Of a stretch of 64,000 nt of DNA, positions 21,958 to 39,529 are shown in pieces. The stretch is from the NCBI GenBank assembly GCA_944362965.1, contig CALVTR010000002.1:16145-80144 (forward strand), written 5' to 3'. Both the position numbers and the translations under genes were made by a program. Under the pieces are notes generated by a model. That model was not told the DNA's origin, made no database searches, and saw only the letters and a list, made by a program, of their open reading frames with translations. The stretch comes from an uncultured Clostridia bacterium (GTDB lineage Bacteria; Bacillota; Clostridia; Christensenellales; UBA1242). Positions within the stretch are counted from its first letter, which is position 1, and every line of letters begins with the position of its first letter.

Positions 21958-22785
21958 ATGAAATATCAAATTTTGGTTGATAGCGCTTCTGACCTTTTGA
22001 GCGACTATGTTAAGGATGAAAATATTGGATTTAAAGTTATACCACTCACAATCAACGTAAACGACAAGGAATATGTTGACAACGACAAGCTTAATGTTGC
22101 TGCAATGCTTGAAGATATGCATCAGTCAAAGAAAAACTCTTCAGCTTGCCCTGCCCCAGAATCTTTTTTGCAGGAGTTTGACAATGCTGAATATACTTTT
22201 ATCGTGACTATCACTTCTAAACTTTCTGGCTGCTATAATGCTGCTTGTGTGGCTAAGCAATCTTATTCTAAACCTGAAAATATTCATGTTATAGATTCAA
22301 AACAAGTTAGCGGAACAGAAATACTTCTTGTTGACAAACTTGTTGAGCTTATTAAGCAAGACCTTTCTTTTGAAGAGATCAAAAAAGCTATTGACGAATA
22401 TAGAGATAAGAAAAGCCTTTACTTTATCTTACAAAAGTTTGATAACCTTGTGAACAATGGAAGAATGAGTAAAATTGCAGGGCTTATTGCAAGCAAACTT
22501 GTAATCCGCCCTATTTGCGTAGCTCATGAAGGTGAAATCAAAATGGCTAAAAAGATTATTGGAATCAAAAATGCCTTTGCAAAACTTGTGCAAATGATCT
22601 CGGAAAAAGCAAAAGACTTCTCTAAAGAAACAATTATCATCACACACTGCTTTGCTGAAGACGAGGCAAACATTATCAAATCTGACCTTGAAAAGAAATG
22701 CAATTTTAAAGAGATAAGAATCCTTCCAATGCGTGGGCTATGCTCTTACTACGCCCTTGAGAAAGGTGTGATTATCTGCCATTAA
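21958..22785 (+). CDS. DegV family fatty-acid-binding protein
   Basis: MKYQILVDSASDL start. 275 aa, typical DegV layout. Confidence 0.8.
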   Translation: MKYQILVDSASDLLSDYVKDENIGFKVIPLTINVNDKEYVDNDKLNVAAMLEDMHQSKKNSSACPAPESFLQEFDNAEYTFIVTITSKLSGCYNAACVAKQSYSKPENIHVIDSKQVSGTEILLVDKLVELIKQDLSFEEIKKAIDEYRDKKSLYFILQKFDNLVNNGRMSKIAGLIASKLVIRPICVAHEGEIKMAKKIIGIKNAFAKLVQMISEKAKDFSKETIIITHCFAEDEANIIKSDLEKKCNFKEIRILPMRGLCSYYALEKGVIICH

Positions 22786-22792
22786 AATAAAA

Positions 22793-22841
22793 GTAGGAAT
22801 TATTGAAAAGTTTTTATTTTTCATGTATTCCTACCTTTTTT
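22793..22841. terminator. bidirectional terminator (long interrupted hairpin)
   Basis: GTAGGAAT...ATTCCTAC with inner TGAAAA/TTTTCA pairing. T-runs on both strands, between convergent genes. Confidence 0.6.
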
Positions 22842-22849
22842 ATAAAGTT

Positions 22850-23725
22850 TTATGATCTGAGACTTATATCTATCGTGCAATTTTCAGTGATATTTATGAT
22901 AGCATAATAGTAAACATATGTAGTGTGTGCATCAGCACTATCTATAATTTCATTATCTATATATAAAATCACTCTTCCTGTATGAATATCTATCACAGAC
23001 TCAAAGCCATAAAAGGTATTTTCAGATGACCAATCAATTTCGTTAACATAAGATTCAAAGTTAGTAGGACCATTATTATATACTATAACACAAATCTTAG
23101 TATTTATTGGAACTGAAATCGTCGTATCTATAGGATTGCTAGAACTAGCACCTGTTTCTATTATTTCAGTATTTCCTTCACCAATTATATAAGCATCAAG
23201 CATATCACCTTGCAAGGTCACTTGAATGCCGGGATCTACATATTCTATAAAGCTTAGTGCTATGTCATCTAAAGTGACACTTGTTGTGCCTGTGTAGGTT
23301 ATAGTTAAGGTTATTGTGCCGGAGATTGTCGGCGTTGTGGCTACGTCTTCTACTGGGGTCGAATTGCCTGTGATTATGCCTGAAATTTCTAGACTTGCGT
23401 TTTGCAAAACTCTATCACAGGTTGCGGTGTAATCCGTTTCTGTGGTGTTTATCATATCTATTTCTATTGCGACAACACCTGAAGTGCTTTCTATGTTGCC
23501 TAAGTTTAAATCTAAGGTTGAATTTATATATCCTGGCATAAAGTTTTCTATTGTCTCTGATTGCAAGCGTATATCTTTAACATAGAGCGTGGTGTCTTCT
23601 ATATTAAAGTTTACTACCCCTTTTAGATTTATCGTTTGGCTTGCTGCATACACTCCAACTAGCAACATAGATAGCATCAACACAAAAGCTGATATTGCTG
23701 AAAATAATTTTACTTTTAGTGACAT
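22850..23725 (-). CDS. secreted/surface protein, unknown function
   Basis: 291 aa from MSLKVKLFSAISAFVLMLSMLLVGVYA (signal peptide; AAAGGAG SD). Thr/Ile-rich beta-like sequence. Shares a TLTIT...L.DI...I.EY..P segment with the 62557-64000 protein. Confidence 0.7.
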   Translation of the reverse strand: MSLKVKLFSAISAFVLMLSMLLVGVYAASQTINLKGVVNFNIEDTTLYVKDIRLQSETIENFMPGYINSTLDLNLGNIESTSGVVAIEIDMINTTETDYTATCDRVLQNASLEISGIITGNSTPVEDVATTPTISGTITLTITYTGTTSVTLDDIALSFIEYVDPGIQVTLQGDMLDAYIIGEGNTEIIETGASSSNPIDTTISVPINTKICVIVYNNGPTNFESYVNEIDWSSENTFYGFESVIDIHTGRVILYIDNEIIDSADAHTTYVYYYAIINITENCTIDISLRS

Positions 23726-23754
23726 ATTATAAACTCCTTTTTCTTGATTTTTAC

Positions 23755-23871
23755 GAGTGGCTTTGCCGCGAGAAGGCACAAAAGGCTGACGAGCCTTTTA
23801 GAAGGCAAAGACTTTTGCCTTCTTGTGCATTTTTCCCAAAATGCACATGCCTTCTCGCGGTAAAGCCGCTC
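23755..23871. other. closed four-way-junction structured element, copy B
   Basis: 24-bp closing stem (23755-23778 / 23848-23871, two G-T pairs) around hairpins 23780-23799, 23800-23823 and 23824-23847 (8, 10 and 10 bp; loops GACG, GACT, TCCC). An extra hairpin lies at 23874-23895. Confidence 0.7.
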
Positions 23872-23906
23872 GCGATAGACGCTGACGCGTCTATCTTTAT
23901 GCTATT

Positions 23907-23934
23907 AGTATACCCCCCCCGCAAACCACGTCAA
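23907..23934 (-). promoter_or_regulatory. sigma-A-type promoter (TTGACG-16-TATACT) whose spacer contains a G8/C8 homopolymer
   Basis: -35 at 23929-23934, -10 at 23907-23912, C8 tract at 23913-23920 abutting the -10. Confidence 0.55.
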
Positions 23935-24061
23935 GCAAATTTAACAAATTTTTTAAATTTTTTTAAAATTTTTTTGTTTTTGGAGATTTTTATACAATAA
24001 TGCCCAGTTTACTTGACCTAAGTTGGTCACATTTTTCGTATTTTGAGATTTTTTATGCATC

Positions 24062-24093
24062 AAAAAAGCGTTAGCGGATGCTAACGTTTTTTT
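24062..24093. terminator. bidirectional intrinsic terminator
   Basis: AAGCGTTAGC-GGAT-GCTAACGTTT stem flanked by A6 and T7. Downstream of the M55 peptidase gene. Confidence 0.75.
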
Positions 24094-24209
24094 GAATTTA
24101 AGAAAGATAAGTGATGAGTGTTTCTATAGAACACAAGAATAATTATCTATACATTATTCTTTTGGTTTTTCTTCTGTTGTAGCTACATTGATTTGGTCTT
24201 GTAGAGAAA

Positions 24210-25001
24210 TTATATACATAAATTGATTATATGTAGGAACTCATCAAGGTCTTTTGCTTTAAATTTAACTGTTTTTCCTTCTAAAATGGAGTTCGGATAA
24301 TTTGCTGCCTTTTTTGCATAAAAATATTTGGCATATTCTATTTCTAAGTCAAATTTACTTGGGCGATAAATCAATTTTTCTTTTATCTCTTCAAAATTAG
24401 ATAAAGCTTGGGTGAGTGCCTTTTTTATTTCTCCATTTACTTTTTGTGGCGATTTGCAGATATAAGATGTGTTTGACAGTTTTTTAGTTATAACACCTAC
24501 TAAATCTGGCAGGCAAGATAAAGCCTCTTCTACTGCTTTTTCGTCACCTGAAATAAAAATAATCGGAATATTATATTTCGCTGCGTTTAATAATGCTAAA
24601 GTTTTTTCACCTATTCTTTTGCCATTTAGTCTTATTTCAAATACTATATCATCACTTATTGTGTGTGAAAGCGGATAAGTTATCTCTCCGCCAGCCGCAT
24701 GATATCCTTCTAAAATTAAGGCATCAAAAGATGAATCTAAACCTGTTAAATTCCTTCCGTCGTCTCCCCTTATAATGTTGCAATAATCTGGTAAATTTTC
24801 AAGCAATATGTTTGTTTCAGTCCAGTGACCATCCTTAATACAAATGTCGTCGAATTTTGTTTTTGCTATTTCGCAAATACCTATAACTTCTTTCGTCATT
24901 ATCTCTCTAAACTGAGCATATTCACTTTTTTCCTGGTTCACTTCGTCCCAAGTCACATTGCCTGCGGTCCCTTCCATATCACATGCTATATACAATTTCA
25001 T
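24210..25001 (-). CDS. M55 family metallopeptidase (DppA-like D-aminopeptidase)
   Basis: MKLYIACDMEGTAGNV N-terminus typical of peptidase M55. Overlaps the trxB stop by 4 nt. Confidence 0.7.
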   Translation of the reverse strand: MKLYIACDMEGTAGNVTWDEVNQEKSEYAQFREIMTKEVIGICEIAKTKFDDICIKDGHWTETNILLENLPDYCNIIRGDDGRNLTGLDSSFDALILEGYHAAGGEITYPLSHTISDDIVFEIRLNGKRIGEKTLALLNAAKYNIPIIFISGDEKAVEEALSCLPDLVGVITKKLSNTSYICKSPQKVNGEIKKALTQALSNFEEIKEKLIYRPSKFDLEIEYAKYFYAKKAANYPNSILEGKTVKFKAKDLDEFLHIINLCI

Positions 25002-27278: not shown

Positions 27279-27947
27279 TTATGCTTGAGCTTCGACAAGT
27301 TCTTCTTCACTGCGGCGAGCAATCTCATTGTCAGCATAAAAGCCAACAAGATAATCTGTAAGTCTTGTGTAGTATTCAATCTTATCTGAGATTGCCTCTT
27401 GCGCCATTTTTGCACAAACTTCTCTTGCCTTCTCTTTATAAGCATCAATCGCCGCCCTATTGTTACCACATAATTTTGACGCTGTCATCTCAATAAACTC
27501 GGGCGTAAACTTTTCTTGAGCCATTTCAAAGTCAACCACGCTGTTGGTGTAGTTTGTTTTATCGTTGTCTATATTGACGCCACTGTTACGGCTATACTCA
27601 CCTACTTGTGCCTGCAACAAAACCGCCATATCCATAAGTGTTGTTAGCCCTTGTTTGTAGTCTGTTTCATTAAGTTTAATCTCGCTTGGAAGGCTGCCTA
27701 AATATTCTTTCATACAATCTTCATATGAACCTACATCAAAGTATTTTGCATACTTTGGTAATGATTTCATAACATTCTCGAAGAGTTCATTTCCCTGCTC
27801 TTCTGCTGCTCTCTTCCCTGCAAGCTTATTGGTGTTTTTTATGTAACTTTTTATTATTCCATTTGCTAGAGCAAGATACTCTTCTTTATCAATCTCTTCT
27901 TGGCATAAAAGTTTTTTAGTGATGTCGTCTATGTAGTTTATCTGCAT
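27279..27947 (-). CDS. hypothetical protein
   Basis: 222 aa, AAAGGAG SD, helical/acidic composition, no motif recognised. Confidence 0.6.
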   Translation of the reverse strand: MQINYIDDITKKLLCQEEIDKEEYLALANGIIKSYIKNTNKLAGKRAAEEQGNELFENVMKSLPKYAKYFDVGSYEDCMKEYLGSLPSEIKLNETDYKQGLTTLMDMAVLLQAQVGEYSRNSGVNIDNDKTNYTNSVVDFEMAQEKFTPEFIEMTASKLCGNNRAAIDAYKEKAREVCAKMAQEAISDKIEYYTRLTDYLVGFYADNEIARRSEEELVEAQA

Positions 27948-28086
27948 AATTTTCTCCTTTGATTATGATTTTATTATAGCAAGGAAATTTATAATATGCA
28001 AGCATTTTTGCATAATTATGCATAAAAATTTATGATTATGATATTTCCGTGTTTGAAAAATTTTTATAGTTTTTTCTAAAAAACCG

Positions 28087-28115
28087 TTGACTTTCTCTTT
28101 ATTATTATATATAAT
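28087..28115 (+). promoter_or_regulatory. sigma-A-type promoter (TTGACT-17-TATAAT) of the giant-protein operon
   Basis: -35 at 28087-28092, -10 at 28110-28115. Confidence 0.6.
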
Positions 28116-28199
28116 AAGTTTAGTTGATAAATAAACATTATAATATGCAAGTTTTAAGAAGCTAAAGTTATTTATCATTTATACAATTTAGGGGGTATT

Positions 28200-28409
28200 A
28201 TGGTAAACAGTTATGCTGTTGTTGCCATGCAGGACCTTTTAGTCAAAGGTCTGTCAGCCTTTACATTTGTCAATTTTGACCACTCCTTAAACCTACATGA
28301 AAATATTTCACACGGACAAGCCGTGAATACATATATAAAACTGAATATGTCAAAAGTAGACGAGTGTGCTGAGCCCTTAAGTAAGGGGTGCAGAGCATGG
28401 CTAAACTAA
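28200..28409 (+). CDS. small ORF (69 aa) at the head of the operon; coding status uncertain
   Basis: Strong AGGGGG SD 4 nt upstream. Overlaps the next start by 13 nt. No recognisable motif. Confidence 0.35.
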   Translation: MVNSYAVVAMQDLLVKGLSAFTFVNFDHSLNLHENISHGQAVNTYIKLNMSKVDECAEPLSKGCRAWLN

Positions 28410-29893
28410 GAGATAAAAAGATTAATTCTGCCACAGGCAGTGATGATAGAAAACTTAATAATGCAAACAATAATGGTGCGAGCGAGCATCAATCTTTTGT
28501 TGTAGATAACGTAGAGACAAAGTTAGAGCCTAGCAAAGAAGGGCTTTCTTTTTCTGTGTCTGAGACTAGTGAAAGTGATAGCAAAAACGTTTTAGATAAA
28601 AAATCGCAGGATATGGACGCTGCTACCCTTTCAAACAAAGGTGAAGAGCAAAAAAATAGCATTGAAAATGACGATGGGAGTGATGGCGGTGAAAAAGCTG
28701 CCAAAACTGATAGTCAAGAAGATAAAGACACATCGCTCGATGAAGATTATAAGAAGATTGCCGAGCTTATGGAAAATCATAGTCTTAGCACGCAGGCAAC
28801 AAGTTCTAACGTTTCATCTTATGAATATGACGATGAAGGCGTTGATATAAATACAGGTTTTGAGCAAACTGAAATCAAGAAGAGCAAAAAGGTTAAGGTC
28901 TCTAAAAAATCCTTAAAGACTGATGACGAAAAGAAGGCTAAGACAAAGAAAAATGTTAAGCCTAAGAAAGTTGTTAAGAAAAGTTTTAAGCAAAGGATGA
29001 GAACGCTTGGCATATTGCTGGTGCTTGGCGTGTTTACAGGAAGCGGACTTGGCGTGTGGTATTTCAACAGCGTGTTAAGGTCTAACGTAGACTACGGAAA
29101 ATATGATGTTTCCGATTATATTGTTTCCGCTGACGAAGTGCTTGAAGGTGTGTTTGGTATAAGCTCTGACCAAAGTAATTGGCTTGAAAGCATAAGAGCT
29201 TCAGAGCAATATAGAGATTATTCGCCGCTTGACCTTTCCCCTGCTCAGAACTTTATCTTAGCTGAGTTCAATGCTACTCTTGCCAACAACTTCCACGCTG
29301 AAGGCAATGGCGTTGTTTCAACTATTGCAACGCAGTCGGTTTACAGTGAAAAGAACTATGACGGAAATAGATACACCTTTGAAAGTATCAGTAAAGGGCT
29401 TATGAGCATTGCTATCTGCTCCGCTATGGATAAGGGAGCAAATTCGGTTGAGCTTTACTCGGGTTCTGACATTGAGCCTAATGATGCCGTTTGGGGCGAG
29501 CCTGAAATTTACTCTAGTGATGACTACATTGAGCTTGCCGGCTCTACGCCTGATGCAATTCAACCTTATATTATATCTGACAAGACTATTTTAAGTCAGA
29601 CCGAAGTTGTCTATGACGAAGCAACAGGCTACTACTCATTTACTATGGAACTTGACCCTGTGACTAGCGTGCTTAGATATGCAAGACAAGTTAGACAGAC
29701 AAGTGGACTTAGCTCTTACCCTGAATTTGACACGGTTACTCAAACCATCACCATTGATGGAGATTGGAACTTAGTTTCTATTGACGTTCATGAAACTTAT
29801 AGCGTGGTTGCCTTTGGTATACCCGCAAGCTGCACCGGCACTCTTCTGACTTACTACTACTTTAATGTAGACGACGTTGTTCTGCCTGTCTAA
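28397..29893 (+). CDS. bitopic membrane protein: low-complexity cytoplasmic N-terminus, one TM helix, about 270-aa extracytoplasmic domain
   Basis: Start at ATG with AAGGGG SD (the track starts at a GTG 9 nt earlier). S/D/E/K-rich first 200 aa, Lys-rich stretch, then TM helix LGILLVLGVFTGSGLGVWYF. Confidence 0.7.
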   Translation: MAKLRDKKINSATGSDDRKLNNANNNGASEHQSFVVDNVETKLEPSKEGLSFSVSETSESDSKNVLDKKSQDMDAATLSNKGEEQKNSIENDDGSDGGEKAAKTDSQEDKDTSLDEDYKKIAELMENHSLSTQATSSNVSSYEYDDEGVDINTGFEQTEIKKSKKVKVSKKSLKTDDEKKAKTKKNVKPKKVVKKSFKQRMRTLGILLVLGVFTGSGLGVWYFNSVLRSNVDYGKYDVSDYIVSADEVLEGVFGISSDQSNWLESIRASEQYRDYSPLDLSPAQNFILAEFNATLANNFHAEGNGVVSTIATQSVYSEKNYDGNRYTFESISKGLMSIAICSAMDKGANSVELYSGSDIEPNDAVWGEPEIYSSDDYIELAGSTPDAIQPYIISDKTILSQTEVVYDEATGYYSFTMELDPVTSVLRYARQVRQTSGLSSYPEFDTVTQTITIDGDWNLVSIDVHETYSVVAFGIPASCTGTLLTYYYFNVDDVVLPV

Positions 29894-29905
29894 AAGGAGC
29901 TTATT

Positions 29906-32900
29906 ATGAGAAAGATTTTTAAAATTCTGTCTTATTCACTTTTATATTTGATTATTTCAGTGGCATCAGCTTATGGTGTCATAACTATTTCAATGAATAA
30001 TTACACGAACGAGCAAAATTCAACTAGCTCTGGCGGCTCCACTGAAGAGACTGTTATAGCAGAAGAAATTTCCACAATGATAAGCAATATCACAAACTCT
30101 AGTGCTTTGGGGCTTGAACTTGAGATTGAAATAGGTGCTGATGGGCAAAACTTTGAGATTGGCGTCGACGGCGAAATCGACCTTTCTAATGGTTTTGAGA
30201 ACTTGGCAGTAAATGCTGATATAAATATTGCATTTAGTGAGAATAGCTCTTTTGATATCGGCGTTATATATAAGGATGGCAACCTATATTTTGAACTTTT
30301 GAACAATAAATTCTTTATAGCAACCGACAATTTGATGACTTCACTTAGTCAAGTGTTTGGACTTCTTGGTGTTGAGATGCCTGAGCTTGGCATTGATTTG
30401 GACTCGCTTAGCCTTGACAGCATTCTTGGTATGCTTTCTAACTTTGAAAAAGTGAATGGTGAAGACGGCTTGCTTGTGCTTCAAGTGGCTATTCCTGTTG
30501 TAAATCAAATTGACCTTATCTGCACAACCGACTATACACTAACCGGGCTTAGCCTTCCTAAGACTTCTATTGAAGGTATTGAACTTGCTGTAAACGGCAA
30601 TGTAAGTTACCCTGAGGAAGTTGTAATTGATAGTGTTGACAGTAGTGATTATATTGACCTTACTAATGTTATTGACCTTGCGTGCGGGCTTATTGACTTT
30701 ATCTCTCAAGACCAAATTGGGCTTGAATATAATGTAAGTTATAATGATTTGACGATTGCTGGCCGCATCGACGTTGATTTAAATAATATCTCAGCTAAAA
30801 TTACTCTTGCTCTTGGTGATTTAAATGCAAATATAATATATCAAAATGGCATGCTCTACCTTGAAGCTTACAATATCTATGCTAAGTTTGATATTGGGCA
30901 GATTGGAGATGTTTTGACATTGGCTCAAAAATACTTTGACGTTGAGTTGCCTAATGAGCTGATTGCTAGCATTGTGTCTGCTATTGAAAGTGGTGATTTT
31001 AGCGGAATACTTGACAGTGTTGAGCTGCCTGAAATTGACCTTTCTTCTATCGACCTTTCAATACTTGAAAGCATTGTGAAGAATGGTGACACAACTTCTA
31101 TTACAATCACTGATATTGGCAAAATTGACGTGACTTTAAGTGAAGGCAAAATAGCGTCTATTGGATTTGATGGTTTTGGCGCTATGGTTGATGTTAATGT
31201 TTCTAACTATAGCGGATTTACTCTAACTGCCCCTGCTGAAAGCTATATTGATATTGGATTGCTGCTTCCAACGCTTGATAACGTGCTTGCAATTCTTCAA
31301 AACAACACATTCTCTGGACAGATAAATATTGTCTATGGGGAATATCAATTTGACATTGATTACACTATTCACACGCGTGAAGAAAACAGCTTTATCACTC
31401 TTTCAACTAGTGTGTTTGGGCAAGATATTAAGGTAAATATATTAAATAATAAAGTTTACATTGAAATAAGTGAGACTAAGCTTATTTGTGACCTTAATAA
31501 CCTTGAAAATGTTATTGGTAAAGTGCTTGATGCATTTGGAATTGAATTTGATAGTTCTTCTATAACTAGTGGACTTAAGGACTTAATCAATAGCGAAATC
31601 AATCCACTTTTAATTACAGGTCTTGTTGAAAATGAAAATGGTGTAACTATTGTTTTACTTGATAAACTGGCAATAACTTTAACAAATGGCTCTAGCGAGC
31701 TTAAGATTGATGTAAACTATCAAGACTTGAAGGTTAGCGGCAATGTTATAGGAAGCATACAAGAACTTACAGCCCCAACCATTGATGAAAGTGAGTACTC
31801 ACCTATTGAAGATATCGTTGACAGTGTGATAAATGTATATAACTACGTTTTAGCTAAGACTTTCTATCTAAGTTTTGATGCAAGTTATCAAGATATTGCT
31901 ATAGTTGGTGCGTTAAACTATGATGAAAGCGGGCTTTCTCTTACTGCAACACTGAGCTATCAAAACTTAACTGCAAATGTTATGCTTTCTGAAAACAAAG
32001 TTTACATCACTGCAGAAAACATCAAGCTTGTGTTTGACTTAAATGACATTGATTATGTTAAATCCTTCTTAAATGACTACTTCGGTGTTGATGTTGAAGG
32101 CATGCTTGATGAAATTTTAGGCAAAGTTGGAATTAGTCTTGATAGTAGCAATGATTCTAGCAACTTAATTTCGGACATCTTAAGCGGAATTGACCTTGAG
32201 ACTATCATAAGCGGTGCAAGCTTTAATATCTCATCTGACACAATCACTCTTTCTGCTCTTGATGGACTTAATGTCAATATTGCTCTTGAAGAAAATATGA
32301 TTACAAGTATTTCTCTTAGCTACAATATTTCAAGTGAAGAACAAACTGCGATTTCAGCCAATGTTACAATTGAAAATTCAAAAAATGAATTTTCTATTGT
32401 AAATGAAAGTGAATATATTGATGTTATTGAACTTCTTGATATTGTAAAAGCTCTCATTGACTTTGCAAGTCAAGACCAAATGGCTGTAAATTATCAAGTT
32501 AACTACAATGATGTAGATGTAAATGGAAAAATTGACTTAAATGTTGCAGAGAAATCCGCAAAGATATCAATCAATATAAATGATTTAATGGCAAACATTA
32601 TCTATGAAAGCGGTTCGCTTTATCTTGAAGCTTACAACATCTATGCTAGGTTTGATATTGGGCAGATTGGAGACGTTTTGACCTTGGTTGAAAAATATTT
32701 TGATGTTACACTGCCTAATGAGTTGATTGCTAGCGTTGTATCTGCTATTGAAAGTGGCGATTTTAGTGGAATACTTGATAGCATTGAACTGCCTTCTATT
32801 GACCTTGGCTCTATTGACCTTTCAATACTTGAGAGCATTGTGAAGAATGGTGACACAACTTCTATTACAATCACTGATATTGGCAAGATTGACGTGACTT

Positions 32901-35900
32901 TAAATGAAGGCAAAATAGCGTCTATAGGTTTTGATGGTTTTGGCGCTGTGGTTGATGTTAATGTTTCTAACTATAGCGGATTTACTCTAACTGCCCCTGC
33001 TGAAAGCTATATTGATATTGGATTGCTGCTTCCAACGCTTGATAACGTGCTTGCAATTCTTCAAAACAACACATTCTCTGGACAGATAAATATTGTCTAT
33101 GGGGAATATCAATTTGACATTGATTACACTATTCACACGCGTGAAGAAAACAGCTTTATCACTCTTTCAACTAGTGTGTTTGGGCAAGATATTAAGGTAA
33201 ATATATTAAATAATAAAGTTTACATTGAAATAAGTGAGACTAAGCTTATTTGTGACCTTAATAACCTTGAAAATGTTATTGGTAAAGTGCTTGATGCATT
33301 TGGAATTGAATTTGATAGTTCTTCTATAACTAGTGGACTTAAGGACTTAATCAATAGCGAAATCAACCCACTTTTAATCACAAGCTTTGTTGAAAATGAA
33401 AATGGTTTGACTATAGTTTTACTTGATAAACTTACAATAACTCTCACAAATGGCTCTAGCGAGCTTAAGGTTGATGCAAGTTATCAAGACTTAAAGCTGA
33501 GTGCAAACGTTATTGGAAGTGAGCAAGAGCTTTCTGCTCCAGCCATTGTTGAAAGTGAATACACACCTATTGAAGATATTGTTGACAGTGTGATAAATGT
33601 TTATAACTACGTTTTAGCCAAGACTTTCTATCTAAGTTTTGATGCAAGCTATCAAGATATTGCTATAGTTGGTGCGTTAAATTATGATGAAAGTGGGCTC
33701 TCTCTTACTGCAACACTGAGCTATCAAAGCCTATCTGCAAATGTTATGCTTTATGAAAACAAAGTATATATCACAGCAGAAAATATCAAACTTGTGTTTG
33801 ACTTAAATGACCTTGAATATGTTAAGACATTCTTAAATGACTATTTCGGTGTTGATATTGAAGGCAAGCTTGATGAAATATTAGGCAAAGTTGGAATTAG
33901 TCTTGATAGTAGTGATAGTGGCAATATGATATCTGACATTTTAAGCGGACTTGACCTTGAGGCTATCATAAGTGGTGCAAGTTTCAATATCTCATCTGAT
34001 GCAATCACCCTTTCTGCTCTTGATGGACTTAACGTGAATATTTCCCTTACAGAAAACATGATTGACACAATTAGTGTTGAGTATATGCTTGTAAATGGAG
34101 AAAATAGCTCGCCTATCAGTGCAAATATTAAAGTTGAACAAATCGCAAGTATCTTTAACCCTGTTGGAGATTATACTGATATTACGACTATATTAGACTA
34201 CGTTGGACTGCTTTTAGATTATGTTAGCACAAAACAGATGCAATTTGGCATTGCGGCAAGTTATGGTGATATAAATGTTGAAGGTAAAATTCAACTTGAT
34301 TTAACTTCTCAACTTCTTATGAGTGCTAGTCTAAACTCAAATGACATCGACAACTTTGATATTTCTGCAAATATTGAAGACGGAATGCTCTACTTTGATT
34401 ATAGTGGGCTCTGCTTAAAGATTGATAACAACAACTTTAAAGAGCTTCTCGTTATTGTGCTTGAAGTTCTTGGAATTGATGCAAATAGCATACCTTTCCT
34501 TGAAGATATCGACCTTGACCTTGATTTCTCTCAAATTGAAACTGACATTGCTTCGCTTGAAATAAGCATTGACGACATAGTAAATATCTTGAAAATGGTG
34601 AAGAAAATTGACGTGACAGGAGACAGTCTTGATATTATTCTTGACGGAAAGGCAATCTATAACAATGAAAACGCAAGTGACCTTACAATCTCTCTTATTA
34701 AAGAAAATGGTGCTATTAAGTCTTTGACGCTTTCTAATATATATCTTGATGAAACGCTTGAAACAAAGATTGACGCTACCCTTACTTTTGAAACGCTAAG
34801 TGATTTTGCTTATGTTGATCAAACCAAAAATTATATTGATATTTCAGGCTCTAACGAGCTTATCAAGGCTCTTATCAATATGACAACTGATACTGACTTC
34901 CATGTTCAAGGTTCATTTGATATCTTGGGTTCGCTTGCTGGTATTGATATCTCTTGGAACGTTCCATTTGATATCAAAATCAACGTTGTGGGCAAAGGTG
35001 ACATTGAACTTTATGGCGTGGTTGGAGAAATCCCGACTATGATTGGCGTTAATAACGACGTGCCTTATGAGTTTGGTGATACTGAAAGTGGCTCTGACAG
35101 ATACCTATATATCTACTATAAGGATGGCTATATCTATCTTTATAGAAGTGAAAAAGTTGATATCATGTTTGGCGCTAGCTATAGAACTTATGAAAAGAGC
35201 ACAAAAATTTCAATAGACACCTTCCTTGCTGACCCTATGTATTATATTCAATACTGCTTTGGTTTTACTGACACTATTATGAATGCAATTATTGAGTCTA
35301 TGAACAATCCACGCACGGAGCCGATGGACTTTGGCAACATTATTAAGTCTTTCACTGTTCAAGATAATAAGAACTTCACGATTGACCTTAATATGCATGA
35401 GCTTACAAACAACCCTGACCTTGACAGTCTTATTGTTTCACTTGGAATTGAACAGACTGCTGAGGGAAAGAACTATGTTGGCAAACTGCAACTTAGTCTT
35501 TACATGCCACTTGCTGATATATTCACACTTACCCTATCAACGAGCGATGCTCAAATTGTTGACTATGGAACAGAAGTTGATATGAGCCCACTTTATGACT
35601 TTATTAATAACTATCAATACGCAAGCGAGACAGAGTGGGAAGCAAGCAATGGCAACTGGCAGATGTCTGGGGAAATACTCTATCAAATAAATTTTGAAAC
35701 AAATTGCGACGAGACGCTTGAGTCACAAAGTTATCATTATAAAGATAGTTTAGCTCTGCCAACACTTTCTGACTATGTTGTTGACGATGGGCTTACACAT
35801 AAGAGTTATCACTTTGCGGGTTGGTTTGAAGATGAAACTTTCTTGACACAATTTACAAGTGATACAATGCCTAGAAAAGATATGACCTTATATGCTAAGT

Positions 35901-36892
35901 GGGAAGTCGTAACACAAAACTACTATACAATAACCTTCGTTACTAATAGTGATGATAAAATTGATAGCATAACTAAACTTGAAGGCGAAAGTATAGATAT
36001 ACCTAGCCTTACAACTAAAGAAATTACTGAAAGTAACTTCACTTCTTACTATGAATTTGGTGGCTGGTTTACAACTGAAGATTTTGAAGAAGGGTCGCAA
36101 TTCAACTTAACCGCAATGCCTTCTCAAAATACCACCCTTTATGCTAAGTGGAACTTAATTAGAACTGAGTATACACGCTCAGTAAACGTCTATGATGGCG
36201 ATGAACTTTTGGCTACGCTGCGTGTTAAAGTTGGAGATACAATAGACTTCTCGTCTATAGAAAAGGTCAATGAGACAACTAAGTTCTATCTTGACAAGTC
36301 TTTCACAGCAGAGATGACCGACTTTACAATGCCTAACAATGACCTTGATATCTATATCAGAAATATGTATACACTGACCTTTACAAGTGATTATGGAAAC
36401 ACTGAAACTGTTATAGTGCATCTCTATCAAGGCGAGCAAATAGAAGTTCCTGTTCAAAGTAGTTATGTTTTTGATGACGGGCAAACCGCTAGAATAACAT
36501 ATACTTTCAATGGCTATAATAGCGATATAGTTATGCCAAATCATGATACAACCTATAGTGCAGATTGGACCGTTGATGAAAAACATTATTACACAGTTTC
36601 ATTTGACCTGAGATGGTATCTTGTTATGGGTTGCACAGCTGGTAGCAAGATGAAAAATTCGCCTTCTCCTATTGATTCATTCAAGGTTTTAGAGGGAACA
36701 ACTATTGACTTAACGCAGTATGCTCCAACCTGCACAGCATACTTGACTGCAATTCCAATAGACGCAAAGAACTTTAAAGCAACGTCTTGGGGAACAAGTG
36801 CATGGGGTGACTACACTTCTGGTGGAAGCGGTTTCACAACAATTACTATCACAGGTGACACAACCTTATATGCTTGCTGGGAAAGAGTTTAA
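29906..36892 (+). CDS. 2,328-aa N-terminally anchored surface protein: about nine ~190-aa modules plus five C-terminal Listeria-Bacteroides (Flg_new-type) repeats
   Basis: AAGGAG SD. Signal-anchor ILSYSLLYLIISVASAYGVITI. C-terminal repeats carry F.GWF...MP...LYAKW. Uninterrupted ORF. Confidence 0.85.
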   Translation: MRKIFKILSYSLLYLIISVASAYGVITISMNNYTNEQNSTSSGGSTEETVIAEEISTMISNITNSSALGLELEIEIGADGQNFEIGVDGEIDLSNGFENLAVNADINIAFSENSSFDIGVIYKDGNLYFELLNNKFFIATDNLMTSLSQVFGLLGVEMPELGIDLDSLSLDSILGMLSNFEKVNGEDGLLVLQVAIPVVNQIDLICTTDYTLTGLSLPKTSIEGIELAVNGNVSYPEEVVIDSVDSSDYIDLTNVIDLACGLIDFISQDQIGLEYNVSYNDLTIAGRIDVDLNNISAKITLALGDLNANIIYQNGMLYLEAYNIYAKFDIGQIGDVLTLAQKYFDVELPNELIASIVSAIESGDFSGILDSVELPEIDLSSIDLSILESIVKNGDTTSITITDIGKIDVTLSEGKIASIGFDGFGAMVDVNVSNYSGFTLTAPAESYIDIGLLLPTLDNVLAILQNNTFSGQINIVYGEYQFDIDYTIHTREENSFITLSTSVFGQDIKVNILNNKVYIEISETKLICDLNNLENVIGKVLDAFGIEFDSSSITSGLKDLINSEINPLLITGLVENENGVTIVLLDKLAITLTNGSSELKIDVNYQDLKVSGNVIGSIQELTAPTIDESEYSPIEDIVDSVINVYNYVLAKTFYLSFDASYQDIAIVGALNYDESGLSLTATLSYQNLTANVMLSENKVYITAENIKLVFDLNDIDYVKSFLNDYFGVDVEGMLDEILGKVGISLDSSNDSSNLISDILSGIDLETIISGASFNISSDTITLSALDGLNVNIALEENMITSISLSYNISSEEQTAISANVTIENSKNEFSIVNESEYIDVIELLDIVKALIDFASQDQMAVNYQVNYNDVDVNGKIDLNVAEKSAKISININDLMANIIYESGSLYLEAYNIYARFDIGQIGDVLTLVEKYFDVTLPNELIASVVSAIESGDFSGILDSIELPSIDLGSIDLSILESIVKNGDTTSITITDIGKIDVTLNEGKIASIGFDGFGAVVDVNVSNYSGFTLTAPAESYIDIGLLLPTLDNVLAILQNNTFSGQINIVYGEYQFDIDYTIHTREENSFITLSTSVFGQDIKVNILNNKVYIEISETKLICDLNNLENVIGKVLDAFGIEFDSSSITSGLKDLINSEINPLLITSFVENENGLTIVLLDKLTITLTNGSSELKVDASYQDLKLSANVIGSEQELSAPAIVESEYTPIEDIVDSVINVYNYVLAKTFYLSFDASYQDIAIVGALNYDESGLSLTATLSYQSLSANVMLYENKVYITAENIKLVFDLNDLEYVKTFLNDYFGVDIEGKLDEILGKVGISLDSSDSGNMISDILSGLDLEAIISGASFNISSDAITLSALDGLNVNISLTENMIDTISVEYMLVNGENSSPISANIKVEQIASIFNPVGDYTDITTILDYVGLLLDYVSTKQMQFGIAASYGDINVEGKIQLDLTSQLLMSASLNSNDIDNFDISANIEDGMLYFDYSGLCLKIDNNNFKELLVIVLEVLGIDANSIPFLEDIDLDLDFSQIETDIASLEISIDDIVNILKMVKKIDVTGDSLDIILDGKAIYNNENASDLTISLIKENGAIKSLTLSNIYLDETLETKIDATLTFETLSDFAYVDQTKNYIDISGSNELIKALINMTTDTDFHVQGSFDILGSLAGIDISWNVPFDIKINVVGKGDIELYGVVGEIPTMIGVNNDVPYEFGDTESGSDRYLYIYYKDGYIYLYRSEKVDIMFGASYRTYEKSTKISIDTFLADPMYYIQYCFGFTDTIMNAIIESMNNPRTEPMDFGNIIKSFTVQDNKNFTIDLNMHELTNNPDLDSLIVSLGIEQTAEGKNYVGKLQLSLYMPLADIFTLTLSTSDAQIVDYGTEVDMSPLYDFINNYQYASETEWEASNGNWQMSGEILYQINFETNCDETLESQSYHYKDSLALPTLSDYVVDDGLTHKSYHFAGWFEDETFLTQFTSDTMPRKDMTLYAKWEVVTQNYYTITFVTNSDDKIDSITKLEGESIDIPSLTTKEITESNFTSYYEFGGWFTTEDFEEGSQFNLTAMPSQNTTLYAKWNLIRTEYTRSVNVYDGDELLATLRVKVGDTIDFSSIEKVNETTKFYLDKSFTAEMTDFTMPNNDLDIYIRNMYTLTFTSDYGNTETVIVHLYQGEQIEVPVQSSYVFDDGQTARITYTFNGYNSDIVMPNHDTTYSADWTVDEKHYYTVSFDLRWYLVMGCTAGSKMKNSPSPIDSFKVLEGTTIDLTQYAPTCTAYLTAIPIDAKNFKATSWGTSAWGDYTSGGSGFTTITITGDTTLYACWERV
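30650..34171 (+). repeat. two tandem in-frame repeats of 1,764 and 1,758 bp inside the giant gene
   Basis: Units 30650-32413 and 32414-34171 (aa 249-836 and 837-1422). 31185-31602 is identical to 32949-33366 (418 bp) by direct comparison. Confidence 0.9.
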
Positions 36893-36906
36893 TTAATTTA
36901 AATAAC

Positions 36907-36942
36907 AAAAAAATAACAGAGAATTATCTCTGTTATTTTTTT
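36907..36942. terminator. bidirectional intrinsic terminator
   Basis: AAATAACAGAG/CTCTGTTATTT stem with A- and T-runs, between the giant gene and minE. Confidence 0.8.
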
Positions 36943-37171
36943 AAAATGGTATGTAGCCATAGGGTTTTATGCGTTCGGCAGAGAACTCTATGAAAAATAT
37001 GTTCTTGTTTTTGTCTTTCTTAAACCGCACTTTTAGGTCGCTATTTAATTCTATATAGCTTTCAATAAGCGGTTTAAGCTCATCTTGCAGCACTTCGCAT
37101 ATGTGCTGCGGGTCTGGCATTTTATCATTTTTTAAGATATTATCTATTCTTTTTGCTATTCTATATTCCAT
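36941..37171 (-). CDS. minE: cell division topological specificity factor MinE-like
   Basis: 76 aa. C-terminal pattern LKPLIESYIELNSDLKVRFKKDKNKNIFFIEFSAE parallels the MinE topological domain. Downstream of minD. AAAGGAG SD. Confidence 0.6.
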   Translation of the reverse strand: MEYRIAKRIDNILKNDKMPDPQHICEVLQDELKPLIESYIELNSDLKVRFKKDKNKNIFFIEFSAERIKPYGYIPF

Positions 37172-37241
37172 TGTTTTCTCCTTTTATATTTATTTTTTAA
37201 TAAATCCGCATGAAAAAACTTGAGCTTTAAATAAAACTTTG

Positions 37242-37424
37242 GGCGGAGCAGAAAAAGGCACAAAAGCGTGAGAGTAGCACTCACAAAAGAAAGCAAACTT
37301 AAGAATAAAAGCAAACTTATCAGCCCTTAAATGGTGAACATGCAAGGTTACAGGTCTACGCATGCTTTCTTTTAAAAAATTAAATGAAATTTAATTTTTG
37401 CTTTTGTGCCGATTGCTGTTTGCC
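37242..37424. other. closed four-way-junction structured element, copy E (expanded)
   Basis: Closing stem GGCACAAAAGC (37257-37267) / GCTTTTGTGCC (37400-37410). Hairpins 37268-37284, 37285-37373 (11-bp base with a 67-nt insert) and 37375-37399. An outer second stem pairs 37242-37251 with 37416-37424. Confidence 0.65.
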
Positions 37425-37562
37425 TATTCCATACCGATTGTTGTTTTCTTTATAAAGATAGTTTCAGCTTAATACAGTTTCAAATAATAAAAAATATACA
37501 AATTAAAGATGAAAGATTTTATAAAAACACGATATTTTTTTAATGTGAGCTAAAAAAACTTT

Positions 37563-38354
37563 TTATACATGCTTTTTTATGTTTCGCTTTATATAGCCCA
37601 TTAGTCCACGATACTTATATGTGCAATCAAAAATTTTCTTTGAGCCGTTGTGAATATTCTCACTTAGCAGTGTGAAAGCCCTTGCACTTTCTATTGATTG
37701 CACTCGTCCGCCAAGTGAGTTTGATGCCCCTATTGCGTCATCTTCTGGAATGACGCCAAGAAGTGGCAGGTTTAACGCCCTGACTATATTTTCAACGGTC
37801 ATCATTTCGCCATTTAAAAGTAGGTCTCCCCGCACTCTATTTATAACTAAGCCTTTATATTCAATATCATACTCATCTAAAAGCCCTATAACCTTATCGG
37901 CATCTCTGATTGATGAAAGGTGCGGAGTTACCACAATTATAGCTTCATTCGCTGGAAACACCGCCCTATGAAAGCCCGCTTCAACACCTGCTGGGCAATC
38001 TATCAAGATATAGTCAAAACTTGTGTCAAGCTGGTCAATCACATTTTTGATATGCTCGCCCATTATATTTGTTTTGTTATAGGCATGAGCTGAAGGCAAT
38101 ATATAAAGTGATGAGATATTCTTGTCTTGAACAAGAGCCTGGCGTGGTCTGCATCTGCCCATAATCACATCTGTGATATCAAAAACAACTTGGTCTTCAA
38201 CTCCCATGACAACGTCAAGATTATTAAGACCGATATCAACATCAAAAAGCACCACTCTGAAGCCAAGTTTTGCTAGATACATGCCTAGATTTGCACATAT
38301 TGTTGTTTTACCTACACCGCCTTTGCCGCTTGTCAAAACAATCTTTCTTGCCAT
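37563..38354 (-). CDS. minD: septum site-determining ATPase MinD
   Basis: MARKIVLTSGKGGVGKTT deviant Walker A. C-terminal amphipathic helix (LMGYIKRNIKK). AAGGAG SD. The track start 39 nt earlier is rejected. Confidence 0.85.
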   Translation of the reverse strand: MARKIVLTSGKGGVGKTTICANLGMYLAKLGFRVVLFDVDIGLNNLDVVMGVEDQVVFDITDVIMGRCRPRQALVQDKNISSLYILPSAHAYNKTNIMGEHIKNVIDQLDTSFDYILIDCPAGVEAGFHRAVFPANEAIIVVTPHLSSIRDADKVIGLLDEYDIEYKGLVINRVRGDLLLNGEMMTVENIVRALNLPLLGVIPEDDAIGASNSLGGRVQSIESARAFTLLSENIHNGSKKIFDCTYKYRGLMGYIKRNIKKHV

Positions 38355-38493
38355 TTTTATCTCCTTGACTTTAATTTTAGCAAAGCATGGCAAATAAATA
38401 AAGTGAAGAAATGTCGTTTTTGCCTTGTTTTTGTCTTATTTTAGGCATTTATAAACTCTATTTTGTTTCAATGATTTTGGCTATTGATAATAA

Positions 38494-38525
38494 CAAAAAA
38501 GATAGACTTATGTTGTCTATCTTTT
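38494..38525 (-). terminator. intrinsic terminator after the mreB-like gene
   Basis: AAAGATAGAC/GTCTATCTTT stem followed by TTTTTTG on the minus strand. Confidence 0.7.
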
Positions 38526-38527
38526 AA

Positions 38528-39529
38528 CTATGTGTTTTCATATATCTTTTGCAAAAGTTCTGGGTCGTCAAGCAGTTTGCCTGCACCTAAGATTGAAACA
38601 TTTTCGCCATCTTCAACTATTCTAAATGGATAGCGGAAGTTTTGTCTTAAATATTTATCAAGCCCTGCAATTTGACTCATTCCCCCAACAAATAAAACGC
38701 CATTGTTTATGATATCGGTTGTTATTTCTGGCGGCAGAGATGTGATTGTAACGTCAAGTGACCTTATAATTTCGTCAAAGAATGGTTCAAGCACCACAAG
38801 CAAATCATTGGATGAAATTATGTATGAGCGTGGAACTTTGCTTTCTATATCAACTCCTGTGACTTCCATATTTAAGGTGTCATTTGGATAAAGGCTGCCA
38901 ACTTCAATTTTTAGCCGCTCGCTTGTGCCTAAGCCGATGACTAGACCCTGATTATAGGCTATGGTGTCTGCAATAGCAACGTCTACAGCACGTCCACCCA
39001 GTCCTAGTGTTGCACCTTTTATTATAGAGTTCATATTTACAACGGCAATATCTGTGTTTGCTCCGCCAATATTTACTATCATATTTGTTTTTGTTGAGCT
39101 GATATTCTTGCCTGCTCCGATACATGAGCATATAACCGTTGGGATTAAGATGACTTCTTTAAAACCAAGTTCATAAAGGAGAGATAAGAAGGTGTCTTTA
39201 TCTTTTTGAGATAGCCCGCAATTTATAAGCACCATTATTGAATCACGTTTCTTTTTGAAGTCTAGTTTTGCAAAGAAATATTCAAGGAGTGCTTTCAAAT
39301 ATTCATAATTTTTTATCTGTCCGTTTGATATTGGGCTGAAAACTTCAACACTATCATTGGTCTTGCCCATCATCTTTTTAGCTTCGCTGCCAAGCCCTAT
39401 AATTTGATAGCCTTGTGGCGTTGGCTCTGCCGCCACCAAAGTAGGTTCACAAAGGACAAAGCCATAGTCTTTAACATAGATTTTTGTGTTTGAACCGCCT
39501 ATCTCAATCGCATACTTATATTTGTTCAT
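38528..39529 (-). CDS. MreB/Mbl-family actin-like protein
   Basis: Phosphate-1 IEIGGSNTKIY, phosphate-2 VNIGGANTDIAV, LGGRAVD, adenosine VGGMSQIAGLDKYL. Confidence 0.7.
   Translation of the reverse strand: MNKYKYAIEIGGSNTKIYVKDYGFVLCEPTLVAAEPTPQGYQIIGLGSEAKKMMGKTNDSVEVFSPISNGQIKNYEYLKALLEYFFAKLDFKKKRDSIMVLINCGLSQKDKDTFLSLLYELGFKEVILIPTVICSCIGAGKNISSTKTNMIVNIGGANTDIAVVNMNSIIKGATLGLGGRAVDVAIADTIAYNQGLVIGLGTSERLKIEVGSLYPNDTLNMEVTGVDIESKVPRSYIISSNDLLVVLEPFFDEIIRSLDVTITSLPPEITTDIINNGVLFVGGMSQIAGLDKYLRQNFRYPFRIVEDGENVSILGAGKLLDDPELLQKIYENT

Follow-up and report, generated by a model that had tools for sequence, protein, structure and literature searches.

Both the LolA fold and long repetitive surface proteins as a class are already known. 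The locus considered here lies in a 64,000-nt stretch of DNA from an uncultured Clostridia bacterium (the window, to whose positions all coordinates refer) and appears to bring in new features, namely the concatenation of LolA-fold modules, a base module that occurs either split off or fused, and an RNA leader. A conserved promoter is followed by the leader, by the gene of a membrane protein of 498 amino acids (aa; the partner) and by the gene of a 2,328-aa protein (the giant protein). Our favoured account, which as a whole stands at about an even chance, is that of a two-protein envelope structure switched by RNA, in which a spacer fibre carries a conserved end module. With LolA, LolB, LprG, LppX and RseB the two proteins share a predicted fold in which an antiparallel beta half-barrel of 6 + 5 strands stays unclosed and carries helical lids. 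Most members of this superfamily bind acyl chains or other hydrophobic ligands. LprG further resembles the present system in being an envelope protein tethered to the membrane, in a bacterium that departs from the classical Gram-negative plan. In contrast to the known members, which have one or two domains and a lipid anchor, nine modules stand here in one chain, anchoring is by transmembrane helix, no similarity was detected at the sequence or profile level, and neither a LolCDE-type transporter nor one of the major facilitator superfamily (as in the LprG-Rv1410c pump) is conserved nearby in the contexts examined.

Gram-positive fibrillar adhesins and Periscope proteins, such as SasG, Aap and Sgo_0707 (PMC8201768, PMC9210967), are likewise very long surface proteins with a rod of tandem domains, a copy number differing between lineages and near-identical internal DNA repeats, and the Flg_new domain, which is present here as well, has been counted among the stalk domains of fibrillar adhesins (PMC9210967). 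However, their rods consist of small Ig-like or beta-sandwich domains, whereas the module here is predicted to be a LolA fold of ~190 aa. The giant protein is rooted in the membrane at its N-terminus, no LPXTG or other wall anchor and no known adhesive domain was found in it (only Flg_new was recognised), its gene is single-copy and syntenic with a length stable within species-level clusters, and it comes with an obligatory LolA-fold partner in the membrane. Bridge-like lipid transport proteins (the AsmA family members TamB, YhdP and YdbH, and the eukaryotic VPS13/BLTP group) resemble it in the N-terminal anchor and in an extracytoplasmic part of great length that is repetitive, rich in beta structure and rather hydrophobic. 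They differ in that no AsmA, TamB or DUF490 match was obtained in Pfam, that Foldseek returned LolA-type structures, that discrete lidded half-barrels are predicted here in place of repeating beta-groove units, and that the length is unconstrained and no sign of an outer membrane was seen in the window.

LolA-fold proteins of Firmicutes can also have non-lipid roles, as described for GerS of C. difficile (bioRxiv 10.1101/2025.01.13.632879) and SsdC/YdcC of B. subtilis (PMC7769602). These too are envelope proteins with LolA-type folds that lack LolA sequence similarity, and SsdC has an N-terminal transmembrane tether. Unlike the present proteins, they are small, single-unit, non-repetitive sporulation or germination factors that act on peptidoglycan enzymes and have no giant partner; no sequence relationship to them was detected. 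Taken together, the system resembles a fibrillar surface protein in its working, and possibly a lipid carrier, but by the definitions of these families it belongs to neither; literature searches gave no relevant account of LolA-like proteins that are giant or arranged in tandem. The gene pair takes up ~8.5 kb of a small genome at a position conserved across a large lineage of uncultured gut Clostridia, and its architecture would represent either a new building block of surface fibres or a new route for hydrophobic molecules across the Gram-positive wall, both outcomes being of interest to envelope biologists.

Predicted folds and architecture of the two proteins

The partner is predicted to be a bitopic membrane protein with a disordered cytoplasmic head, a glycine-zipper helix and a LolA/LprG-type outer domain (Table 1). 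AlphaFold2 modelling with an alignment of 48 sequences gave predicted local distance difference test (pLDDT) values above 90 for aa 230–498, where helices are combined with a long antiparallel sheet, and values below 50 for the head. Comparison of the ectodomain model with the PDB by Foldseek found LprG (3mh8) with an expect value (E) of 2.8e-5, a probability of 1.0 and a target template modelling score (TM-score) of 0.52; the other matches, with probabilities up to 1.0, were LolA-LolB (8orn), RseB, VioE and ependymin. The helix and the ectodomain are conserved among homologues (40–100% identity), while the head is not and varies in both length and sequence. The most conserved segment of the protein is the transmembrane helix, which has the glycine-zipper-like (GxxxGxGxG-type) motif LGxFTGSGLGVWYFN with G211, G215, L218, G219 and Y222 invariant. 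When named relatives were sought by a profile search with the ectodomain, every match was an unannotated protein of the family itself, and a match of SepX/GlpR to the low-complexity head was dismissed (E 0.019; 14.8 bits against a cut-off of 160).

In the giant protein, the fragment of aa 1215–2010 was modelled by AlphaFold2 with a mean pLDDT of 81.6. The modules M7, M8 and M9 each showed a helix, six strands, lid helices and five strands, the lid segments of the rod modules being modelled with low confidence. Foldseek with the whole fragment matched LolA from four species (including 2w7q, 9azz and 7z6w), LprG and RseB at a probability of 1.0. Matches of this multi-domain fragment to TbpB, usher and porin structures were disregarded owing to TM-scores of 0.06–0.15, and no TamB- or AsmA-type structure was among the 50 listed matches. 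A LolA-like half-barrel, which an earlier note on this DNA had suggested for the modules as no more than an inference, is thus supported by predicted structures for the M7–M9 fragment and, unexpectedly, for the partner ectodomain as well. Alignment of partner and rod modules by hhalign gave a probability of 0.4%, so the fold common to them is not detectable as sequence homology.

The view of the giant protein as a modular envelope protein, close to that of the earlier note, was supported. Self-comparison revealed nine modules with a periodicity of ~190 aa, about as many as the note had counted. M1–M8 form the rod and M9 is the terminal module; the boundaries of M1–M6 come from sequence periodicity only, and these six were assigned by their sequence similarity to M7–M9. 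The periodicity is old and overlaid by a super-repeat, a recent tandem duplication of three modules (588 aa). Aligned with each other, its two copies are 57% identical towards their edges, and this value climbs to 100% in a central stretch of 418 nt. Such a gradient points to gene conversion that is still going on and not to one recent duplication event, although an assembly artefact is possible. Nine independent assemblies of a related species gave the same length of 2,328 aa, and P0003, a 94%-identical homologue of 1,741 aa, is without one copy of the super-repeat. Tandem Repeats Finder reported nothing, because the period of 1,764 nt exceeds its limit.

At the N-terminus, the hydrophobic segment with the conserved ASAYGVI may be either a signal anchor or a signal peptide. 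The glycine zipper of the partner together with ASAYGVI would fit helix-helix packing in the membrane; alternatively, A-S-A would be a signal-peptidase site. M9 has a near-invariant loop (GEIPxxxGVNNDVPYxFGDTESGxDR) and zero family matches. The C-terminal region, which ends with ...LYACWERV, matched Flg_new in Pfam (PF09479, 61.4 bits against a cut-off of 27) and in NCBIfam (TIGR02543, 39.7 against 20.95), and a local hidden Markov model found three strong and two weak copies, in agreement with the five repeats recognised before. Flg_new was the only Pfam or NCBIfam match of all three products of the locus. No sortase LPXTG signal and no SLH, LysM, GW, choline-binding or enzyme family was found in the giant protein by these scans, so that the absence of sortase, S-layer, choline-binding and enzyme motifs stated earlier still stands; the statement that no curated family or system can be assigned also stands after the Pfam, NCBIfam, PDB-sequence and profile searches. 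The grand average of hydropathy (GRAVY) of the rod is +0.24 (homologue median 0.01), and that of the Flg_new tail is −0.45.

Homologues of the giant protein (26–98% identity) all come from metagenome-assembled genomes of uncultured Clostridia. An exhaustive profile search with M7–M9 collected at least 843 clusters at 50% identity (E up to 1e-3) from human, mouse and ruminant guts, 451 of them at E up to 1e-30. Lengths between 667 and 4,623 aa are listed, the lowest values probably belonging to fragments, and the named members are all called "hypothetical" or "InlB B-repeat-containing", the latter after the Flg_new tail. Among 150 representatives, 127 have an N-terminal hydrophobic segment (many of the others are truncated) and 144 have a single copy of M9. 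All 137 tails that reach 100 aa or more carry Flg_new-type repeats, in 1–10 copies; in seven representatives the protein stops with the end of M9 and has no Flg_new, and P0030 among these is a complete gene. The module number of homologues ranges roughly from 3 to 20 in comparison with nine in the present protein, and the distance from the start of the giant gene to M9 from 2.0 to 6.7 kb across genomic loci.

That the membrane partner is genuine, as had been claimed, follows from its adjacency to the giant gene in every locus with enough DNA and from its fusion to the giant protein in some lineages. The N-terminus of the giant protein is encoded immediately 3′ of the partner in all 36 species-level loci with downstream DNA (37 genomes); contigs of sufficient length also have M9 further on, and the loci share their flanks. 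In 15 of 187 representatives, including P0243, P0135, P0032 and P0030, the giant protein itself contains a partner-like domain immediately behind its only transmembrane segment, and this domain matches the ectodomain profile with E from 1e-21 to 4e-36. These fusions, the decisive finding, suggest that the partner is the membrane-proximal module of one structure and was split off in the present clade. We therefore hold it very likely that partner and giant protein make up a single structure occurring in split or fused form.

Possible roles: spacer fibre, lipid relay or envelope regulator

It is probable, with slightly less confidence, that the two proteins form an extracellular fibre rooted in the membrane. 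The partner would be the detached membrane-proximal module and would dock on the base of the giant protein through its ectodomain, its transmembrane helix or both, and the two would build a fibre tens of nm long that crosses the wall. At ~4 nm per module, an estimate taken from the size of LolA, the fibre would measure ~40–50 nm, which exceeds the Gram-positive wall. The rod would serve mainly as a spacer of species-specific length (~3–20 modules) that holds M9 and the Flg_new repeats at the surface of the wall or outside it; there M9 may bind a conserved, probably bacterial, ligand, and the LolA-type pockets might hold hydrophobic ligands in addition. The chance of the rod being mainly a spacer falls just short of even. 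This role is slightly favoured over a lipid relay because length is unconstrained between species, because M9 and the partner ectodomain are better conserved among closer relatives than the N-terminal module region, because Flg_new is a stalk-type domain and because LolA folds of Firmicutes can be protein-binding regulators. The rod itself also speaks for a spacer, both by the end position of M9, which spans aa 431 to 4154 in the 150 representatives (the low end probably representing truncated sequences), and by the internal duplication with its identical 418-nt core.

Several observations weigh against the spacer account. The fold assignment comes from predicted structures only, and the TM-scores of the LolA targets are modest (0.36–0.52); the query from the giant protein was a whole three-module fragment, whose matches are not assignable to a single module; and the packing of the domains, the shape of the cavity and the contact between partner and giant protein are all inferred. 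Neither partner nor rod matched any LolA-type family at E up to 1 (LolA, LppX_LprAFG, MucB_RseB and LolA_like in Pfam; NCBIfam), and single-sequence and profile searches of PDB sequences gave nothing meaningful and no LolA-type link. The predicted fold and the hydropathy of the rod suit lipid binding at least as well as a passive spacer. The constant length of the giant protein within 90%-identity clusters, which holds across dozens of assemblies although short-read assemblies may collapse repeats, indicates that the rod is not a fast-varying stalk of the periscope type. The gene pair occurs in single copy, keeps its synteny and is passed on vertically, as genes of housekeeping functions are, which is unusual for adhesins. 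Finally, the giant protein may be cleaved at A-S-A, in which case the partner would be the only membrane anchor.

The alternative that survives best, possible though doubtful, is a lipid relay or conduit, in which ten LolA-fold modules (that of the partner and the nine of the giant protein) would pass a hydrophobic molecule between the membrane and the surface or exterior. Transfer would need no energy input outside the cell and would proceed hand-to-hand between pockets or along a continuous groove, and the partner module would load or unload the cargo at the bilayer; fatty acids, phospholipids, glycolipids, acyl chains of lipoproteins, sterols or quinones are candidates. With such a relay, monoderm bacteria would have their own version of bridge-like lipid transporters or of export in the manner of LprG. 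It agrees with the predicted resemblance of the partner ectodomain and the giant fragment to the LolA/LprG/RseB superfamily, with a base module that a highly conserved transmembrane helix holds right against the membrane, with lid segments of the rod that may be flexible, as their low modelling confidence would allow, with a rod that is unusually hydrophobic for an extracellular protein and with the constant giant length within species-level clusters. A core-genome, single-copy, syntenic locus with a dedicated riboswitch-like leader would suit it too, and one fused member (P0135) is encoded beside an ATP-binding cassette (ABC) ATPase and an FtsX/MacB-type permease. However, this pair was seen in one of eight contexts examined, and the locus has no conserved transporter as a neighbour; the relay would lack a second membrane as its destination, the module number varies several-fold between species, no sequence signature of a lipid-binding family was found in Pfam or NCBIfam, and GerS and SsdC illustrate that such folds in Firmicutes can be protein-binding regulators. 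A stronger form of the relay, less probable still and in our view unlikely, would be a new class of lipid-transfer fibre in single-membrane bacteria, with a covalent chain of LolA folds that runs through the wall and past it, a detachable LolA-fold base module in the membrane, passive scavenging or export of lipids or other hydrophobic molecules from pocket to pocket and a new riboswitch-like leader that responds to the metabolite concerned.

It is improbable that the structure is an envelope regulator or tether which, as RseB, SsdC and GerS do, works by protein-protein or protein-wall contacts. Such a protein might scaffold or activate peptidoglycan enzymes, set the distance between the membrane and the wall or S-layer, or sense envelope stress, and the disordered head of the partner would signal inward. 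Besides the precedent of GerS and SsdC, the long cytoplasmic head would fit this role, as would the cell-shape and division genes next to the locus (minE-minD-mreB in all syntenic loci, ftsW-murG-murB-ftsZ in locus L042) and the conservation of M9 across bacteria of different hosts, which suggests a bacterial rather than a host ligand. Yet the estimated fibre length is far above the wall thickness and differs several-fold between species, and the head is poorly conserved and missing from most fused forms. The neighbourhood also varies outside the syntenic clade, so the link to min and mre genes may only reflect vertical inheritance.

The leader region and its 69-aa open reading frame

The spacer account includes a switch at the RNA level. 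The 69-aa open reading frame (ORF) upstream of the partner gene had been taken for the first gene of a three-gene operon, and this claim was not supported: the region is most likely a 5′ leader whose RNA structure hides the partner's ribosome-binding site along with its start codon, as judged from conserved synonymous sites, covarying helices and the persistence of the RNA where the ORF is broken. When the window was compared with its relatives, the proportion of synonymous differences (pS) in the ORF was 0.10–0.31, against 0.46–0.78 when the partner and giant genes were compared in those genomes, and the ratio of the nonsynonymous to the synonymous proportion (pN/pS) was 0.4–1.3, against about 0.2–0.4 in the two genes, which are under purifying selection. 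The leader region contains invariant blocks of 17–19 nt.

RNAalifold analysis of eight species predicted nine helices. Helix 3 has compensatory changes in six of its eight pairs, and the hairpin CACGG-ACAAG-CCGUG covaries. Helix 9 (GCCCUU/AAGGGG) involves the Shine-Dalgarno site of the partner, and in helix 2 GCCAU is paired with AUGGC of the partner, the corresponding pairing being GCCAC/GUGGC in locus L012. In this alignment 94.6% of the cells were paired, compared with 34–50% when the pairing partners were slid, and the covariation score was reached by none of 500 shuffles. The minimum-free-energy fold of the window sequence alone also recovered the long-range helices (z = −2.2).

With a covariance model built from the eight sequences, 42 split-type loci were searched, and in 41 of them (L001, L002, L004–L041 and L044) it matched directly 5′ of the partner gene; these include the distant loci L001, L002, L044 and L015–L041, which have no called or detected ORF. 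In L001, L002 and L044 the gene callers gave no ORF of the 69-aa type and the RNA model still matched; in L009, L010 and L013 the ORF is broken or absent/undetectable and the RNA is retained. The model detected no leader in the loci of divergent members, either fused (L042, L045–L047) or split (L043). Across 29 species, 39 of 54 pairs showed double changes, 88.7% of the cells were paired against 37–48% in slid controls, and the observed values were reached by none of 500 shuffles; these figures favour structure, since the alignment was fitted to the model. A pattern scan of metagenomes for further copies recovered 5 loci only, the covariance model being far more productive.

The arrangement agrees with translational riboswitches and other leaders that sequester the ribosome-binding site, in which a multi-helix 5′ leader with compensatory changes pairs with the Shine-Dalgarno site and start codon. 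It differs from them in overlapping an ORF in one sub-clade and in having no relative in Rfam 15, whose 4,227 families gave no match to either strand of 27900–28500 at E up to 1. As a new structured element the leader is well supported, and it is a candidate riboswitch or regulatory leader. From the conserved promoter a leader of ~275 nt would be transcribed whose covarying helices pair with the ribosome-binding site and AUG of the partner; a signal that opens the RNA would permit translation. The leader most likely gates that of the partner, and its ligand or binding factor, once found, would offer a direct, testable path to the function of the fibre.

The operon is, on the same comparative evidence, better read as a structured leader with two genes than as three protein genes, and in the close sub-clade the 69-aa ORF is at most a leader peptide within the RNA element. 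That it encodes a functional small subunit of a three-protein operon is very improbable, for although eight of the ten species in the close sub-clade have it intact (60–70 aa) and preceded by a strong GGGGG ribosome-binding site, and although its stop codon overlaps the partner start in a way that would permit translational coupling, its synonymous sites are as conserved as its nonsynonymous ones, invariant blocks and covarying helices run through it, the RNA outlasts it in the loci named above and its product has zero family matches in Pfam and NCBIfam.

Layout of the locus and neighbouring genes

The three ORFs described before (69, 498 and 2,328 aa) were all found (coordinates in Table 1); the partner reads 498 aa from the ATG at 28397, or 501 aa from an in-frame GTG at 28388. 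The promoter noted earlier proved to be the best match of the region, and its boxes (−35 CGTTGAC and −10 TATATAAT) are identical across six related species. The AAGGAG reported in front of the giant gene lies in the 12-nt gap between the TAA of the partner and the giant ATG. The palindrome TGCATAATTATGCA was also present as described, its block being kept with small variants in six species. The repeat ATAATATGCAAG does have two copies in the window, where 0.03 would be expected by chance, but the second, at 28140–28151, had been placed 8 nt too early in the earlier note, at 28132–28143. Judged from sequence comparison, the features of the locus are not products of chance.

Table 1. Coordinates of the features of the locus in the window
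Feature	Position	Strand	Basis or remark
First ATAATATGCAAG copy	27991..28002	+	Partly conserved between species
Perfect 14-bp palindrome TGCATAATTATGCA	28009..28022	.	Divergent intergenic region; candidate operator
Sigma-70-type promoter TTGACT-17-TATAAT	28087..28115	+	11/12 matches, best of the region
Second ATAATATGCAAG copy	28140..28151	+	Just 3′ of the −10 box; conserved only in closest relatives
Structured 5′ leader RNA, ~235 nt, nine predicted helices	28186..28420	+	Covariation, covariance model
69-aa ORF within the leader	28200..28409	+	Probably non-protein, at most leader peptide; substitution pattern
Partner cytoplasmic head, aa 1–195	28397..28981	+	Disordered, S/D/E/K-rich, Lys-rich stretch by the membrane
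Partner transmembrane helix, aa ~203–227	29003..29077	+	Hydrophobicity; modelled helix aa 197–227
Partner ectodomain, aa 228–498, with stop codon	29078..29893	+	Predicted LolA/LprG-like half-barrel
Ribosome-binding site of the giant gene, AAGGAG	29894..29899	+	Abuts the partner stop codon TAA
Giant gene, 2,328 aa	29906..36892	+	ORF, homologues
Giant N-terminal hydrophobic segment, aa ~4–29	29915..29992	+	Conserved ASAYGVI
Rod, eight modules of ~180–210 aa	30053..34753	+	Self-similarity; M7 and M8 modelled
Rod modules M1–M4			M1 aa 50–247, M2 248–445, M3 446–626, M4 627–835
Rod modules M5–M8			M5 aa 836–1033, M6 1034–1214, M7 1215–1422, M8 1423–1616
Tandem super-repeat, 1,764 nt (588 aa, three modules) per copy	30635..34165	+	aa 244–831 and 832–1419
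Terminal module M9, aa 1617–1905	34754..35620	+	Larger, predicted LolA-like layout; best-conserved part of the giant protein
C-terminal Flg_new (Listeria-Bacteroides / InlB B-repeat) region	35621..36889	+	~Five repeats
Bidirectional terminator hairpin	36906..36943	.	Between the giant gene and convergent minE

The context of the locus is chromosomal, with rplM-rpsI upstream, a G+C content of ~36% and no compositional break. The terminator hairpin behind the giant gene is AT-rich and has 17 pairs, 3 of them G-C. Downstream and convergent (36941–39529, −) lie a 76-aa ORF, called minE-like because its orthologues match MinE weakly, a MinD/ParA-type ATPase gene and mreB, and these three are convergent to the giant gene in every syntenic locus. 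An origin from a mobile element or phage was rejected, since the locus stands between rplM-rpsI and minE-minD-mreB throughout the syntenic clade. The part of the window scanned with Pfam contained typical Firmicute genes and no outer-membrane marker.

In locus L042, where the fused 4,623-aa P0135 is placed after ftsW-murG-murB-ftsZ, the genes directly downstream (21996–24593 of that locus) encode the ABC ATPase and a 630-aa permease of the FtsX/MacB type, which we take to be the permease type of LolCDE. A conserved transporter partner was rejected as a general feature, as among the contexts examined the pair stands beside P0135 only.

Upstream of the operon, a divergent gene (27279–27947, −) encodes an acidic protein of 222 aa that is conserved only in the closer sub-clade (23–77% identity) and has no family match. 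Since the palindrome lies between this gene and the operon promoter, the 222-aa protein could share the regulation of the operon or be its regulator.

A second large unannotated envelope protein of 1,142 aa is encoded at 42382–45810 (+). It has a signal peptide, repeated beta-rich segments and an acidic T/D-rich linker, followed at its C-terminal end by a transmembrane helix and a Lys/Glu-rich cytoplasmic tail, and it gave zero Pfam matches. The protein is kept at the same position in L001, L002, L004 and L044, with 49–63% identity where measured. Finally, the orthologue of the ORF at 21958–22785 (+) that stands at the matching position of L004 is annotated as a DegV (fatty-acid-binding) domain protein; the label is that of the L004 orthologue and not from a scan of the window ORF, and it relates to the idea of a lipid relay in that the use of exogenous fatty acids would bear on it.

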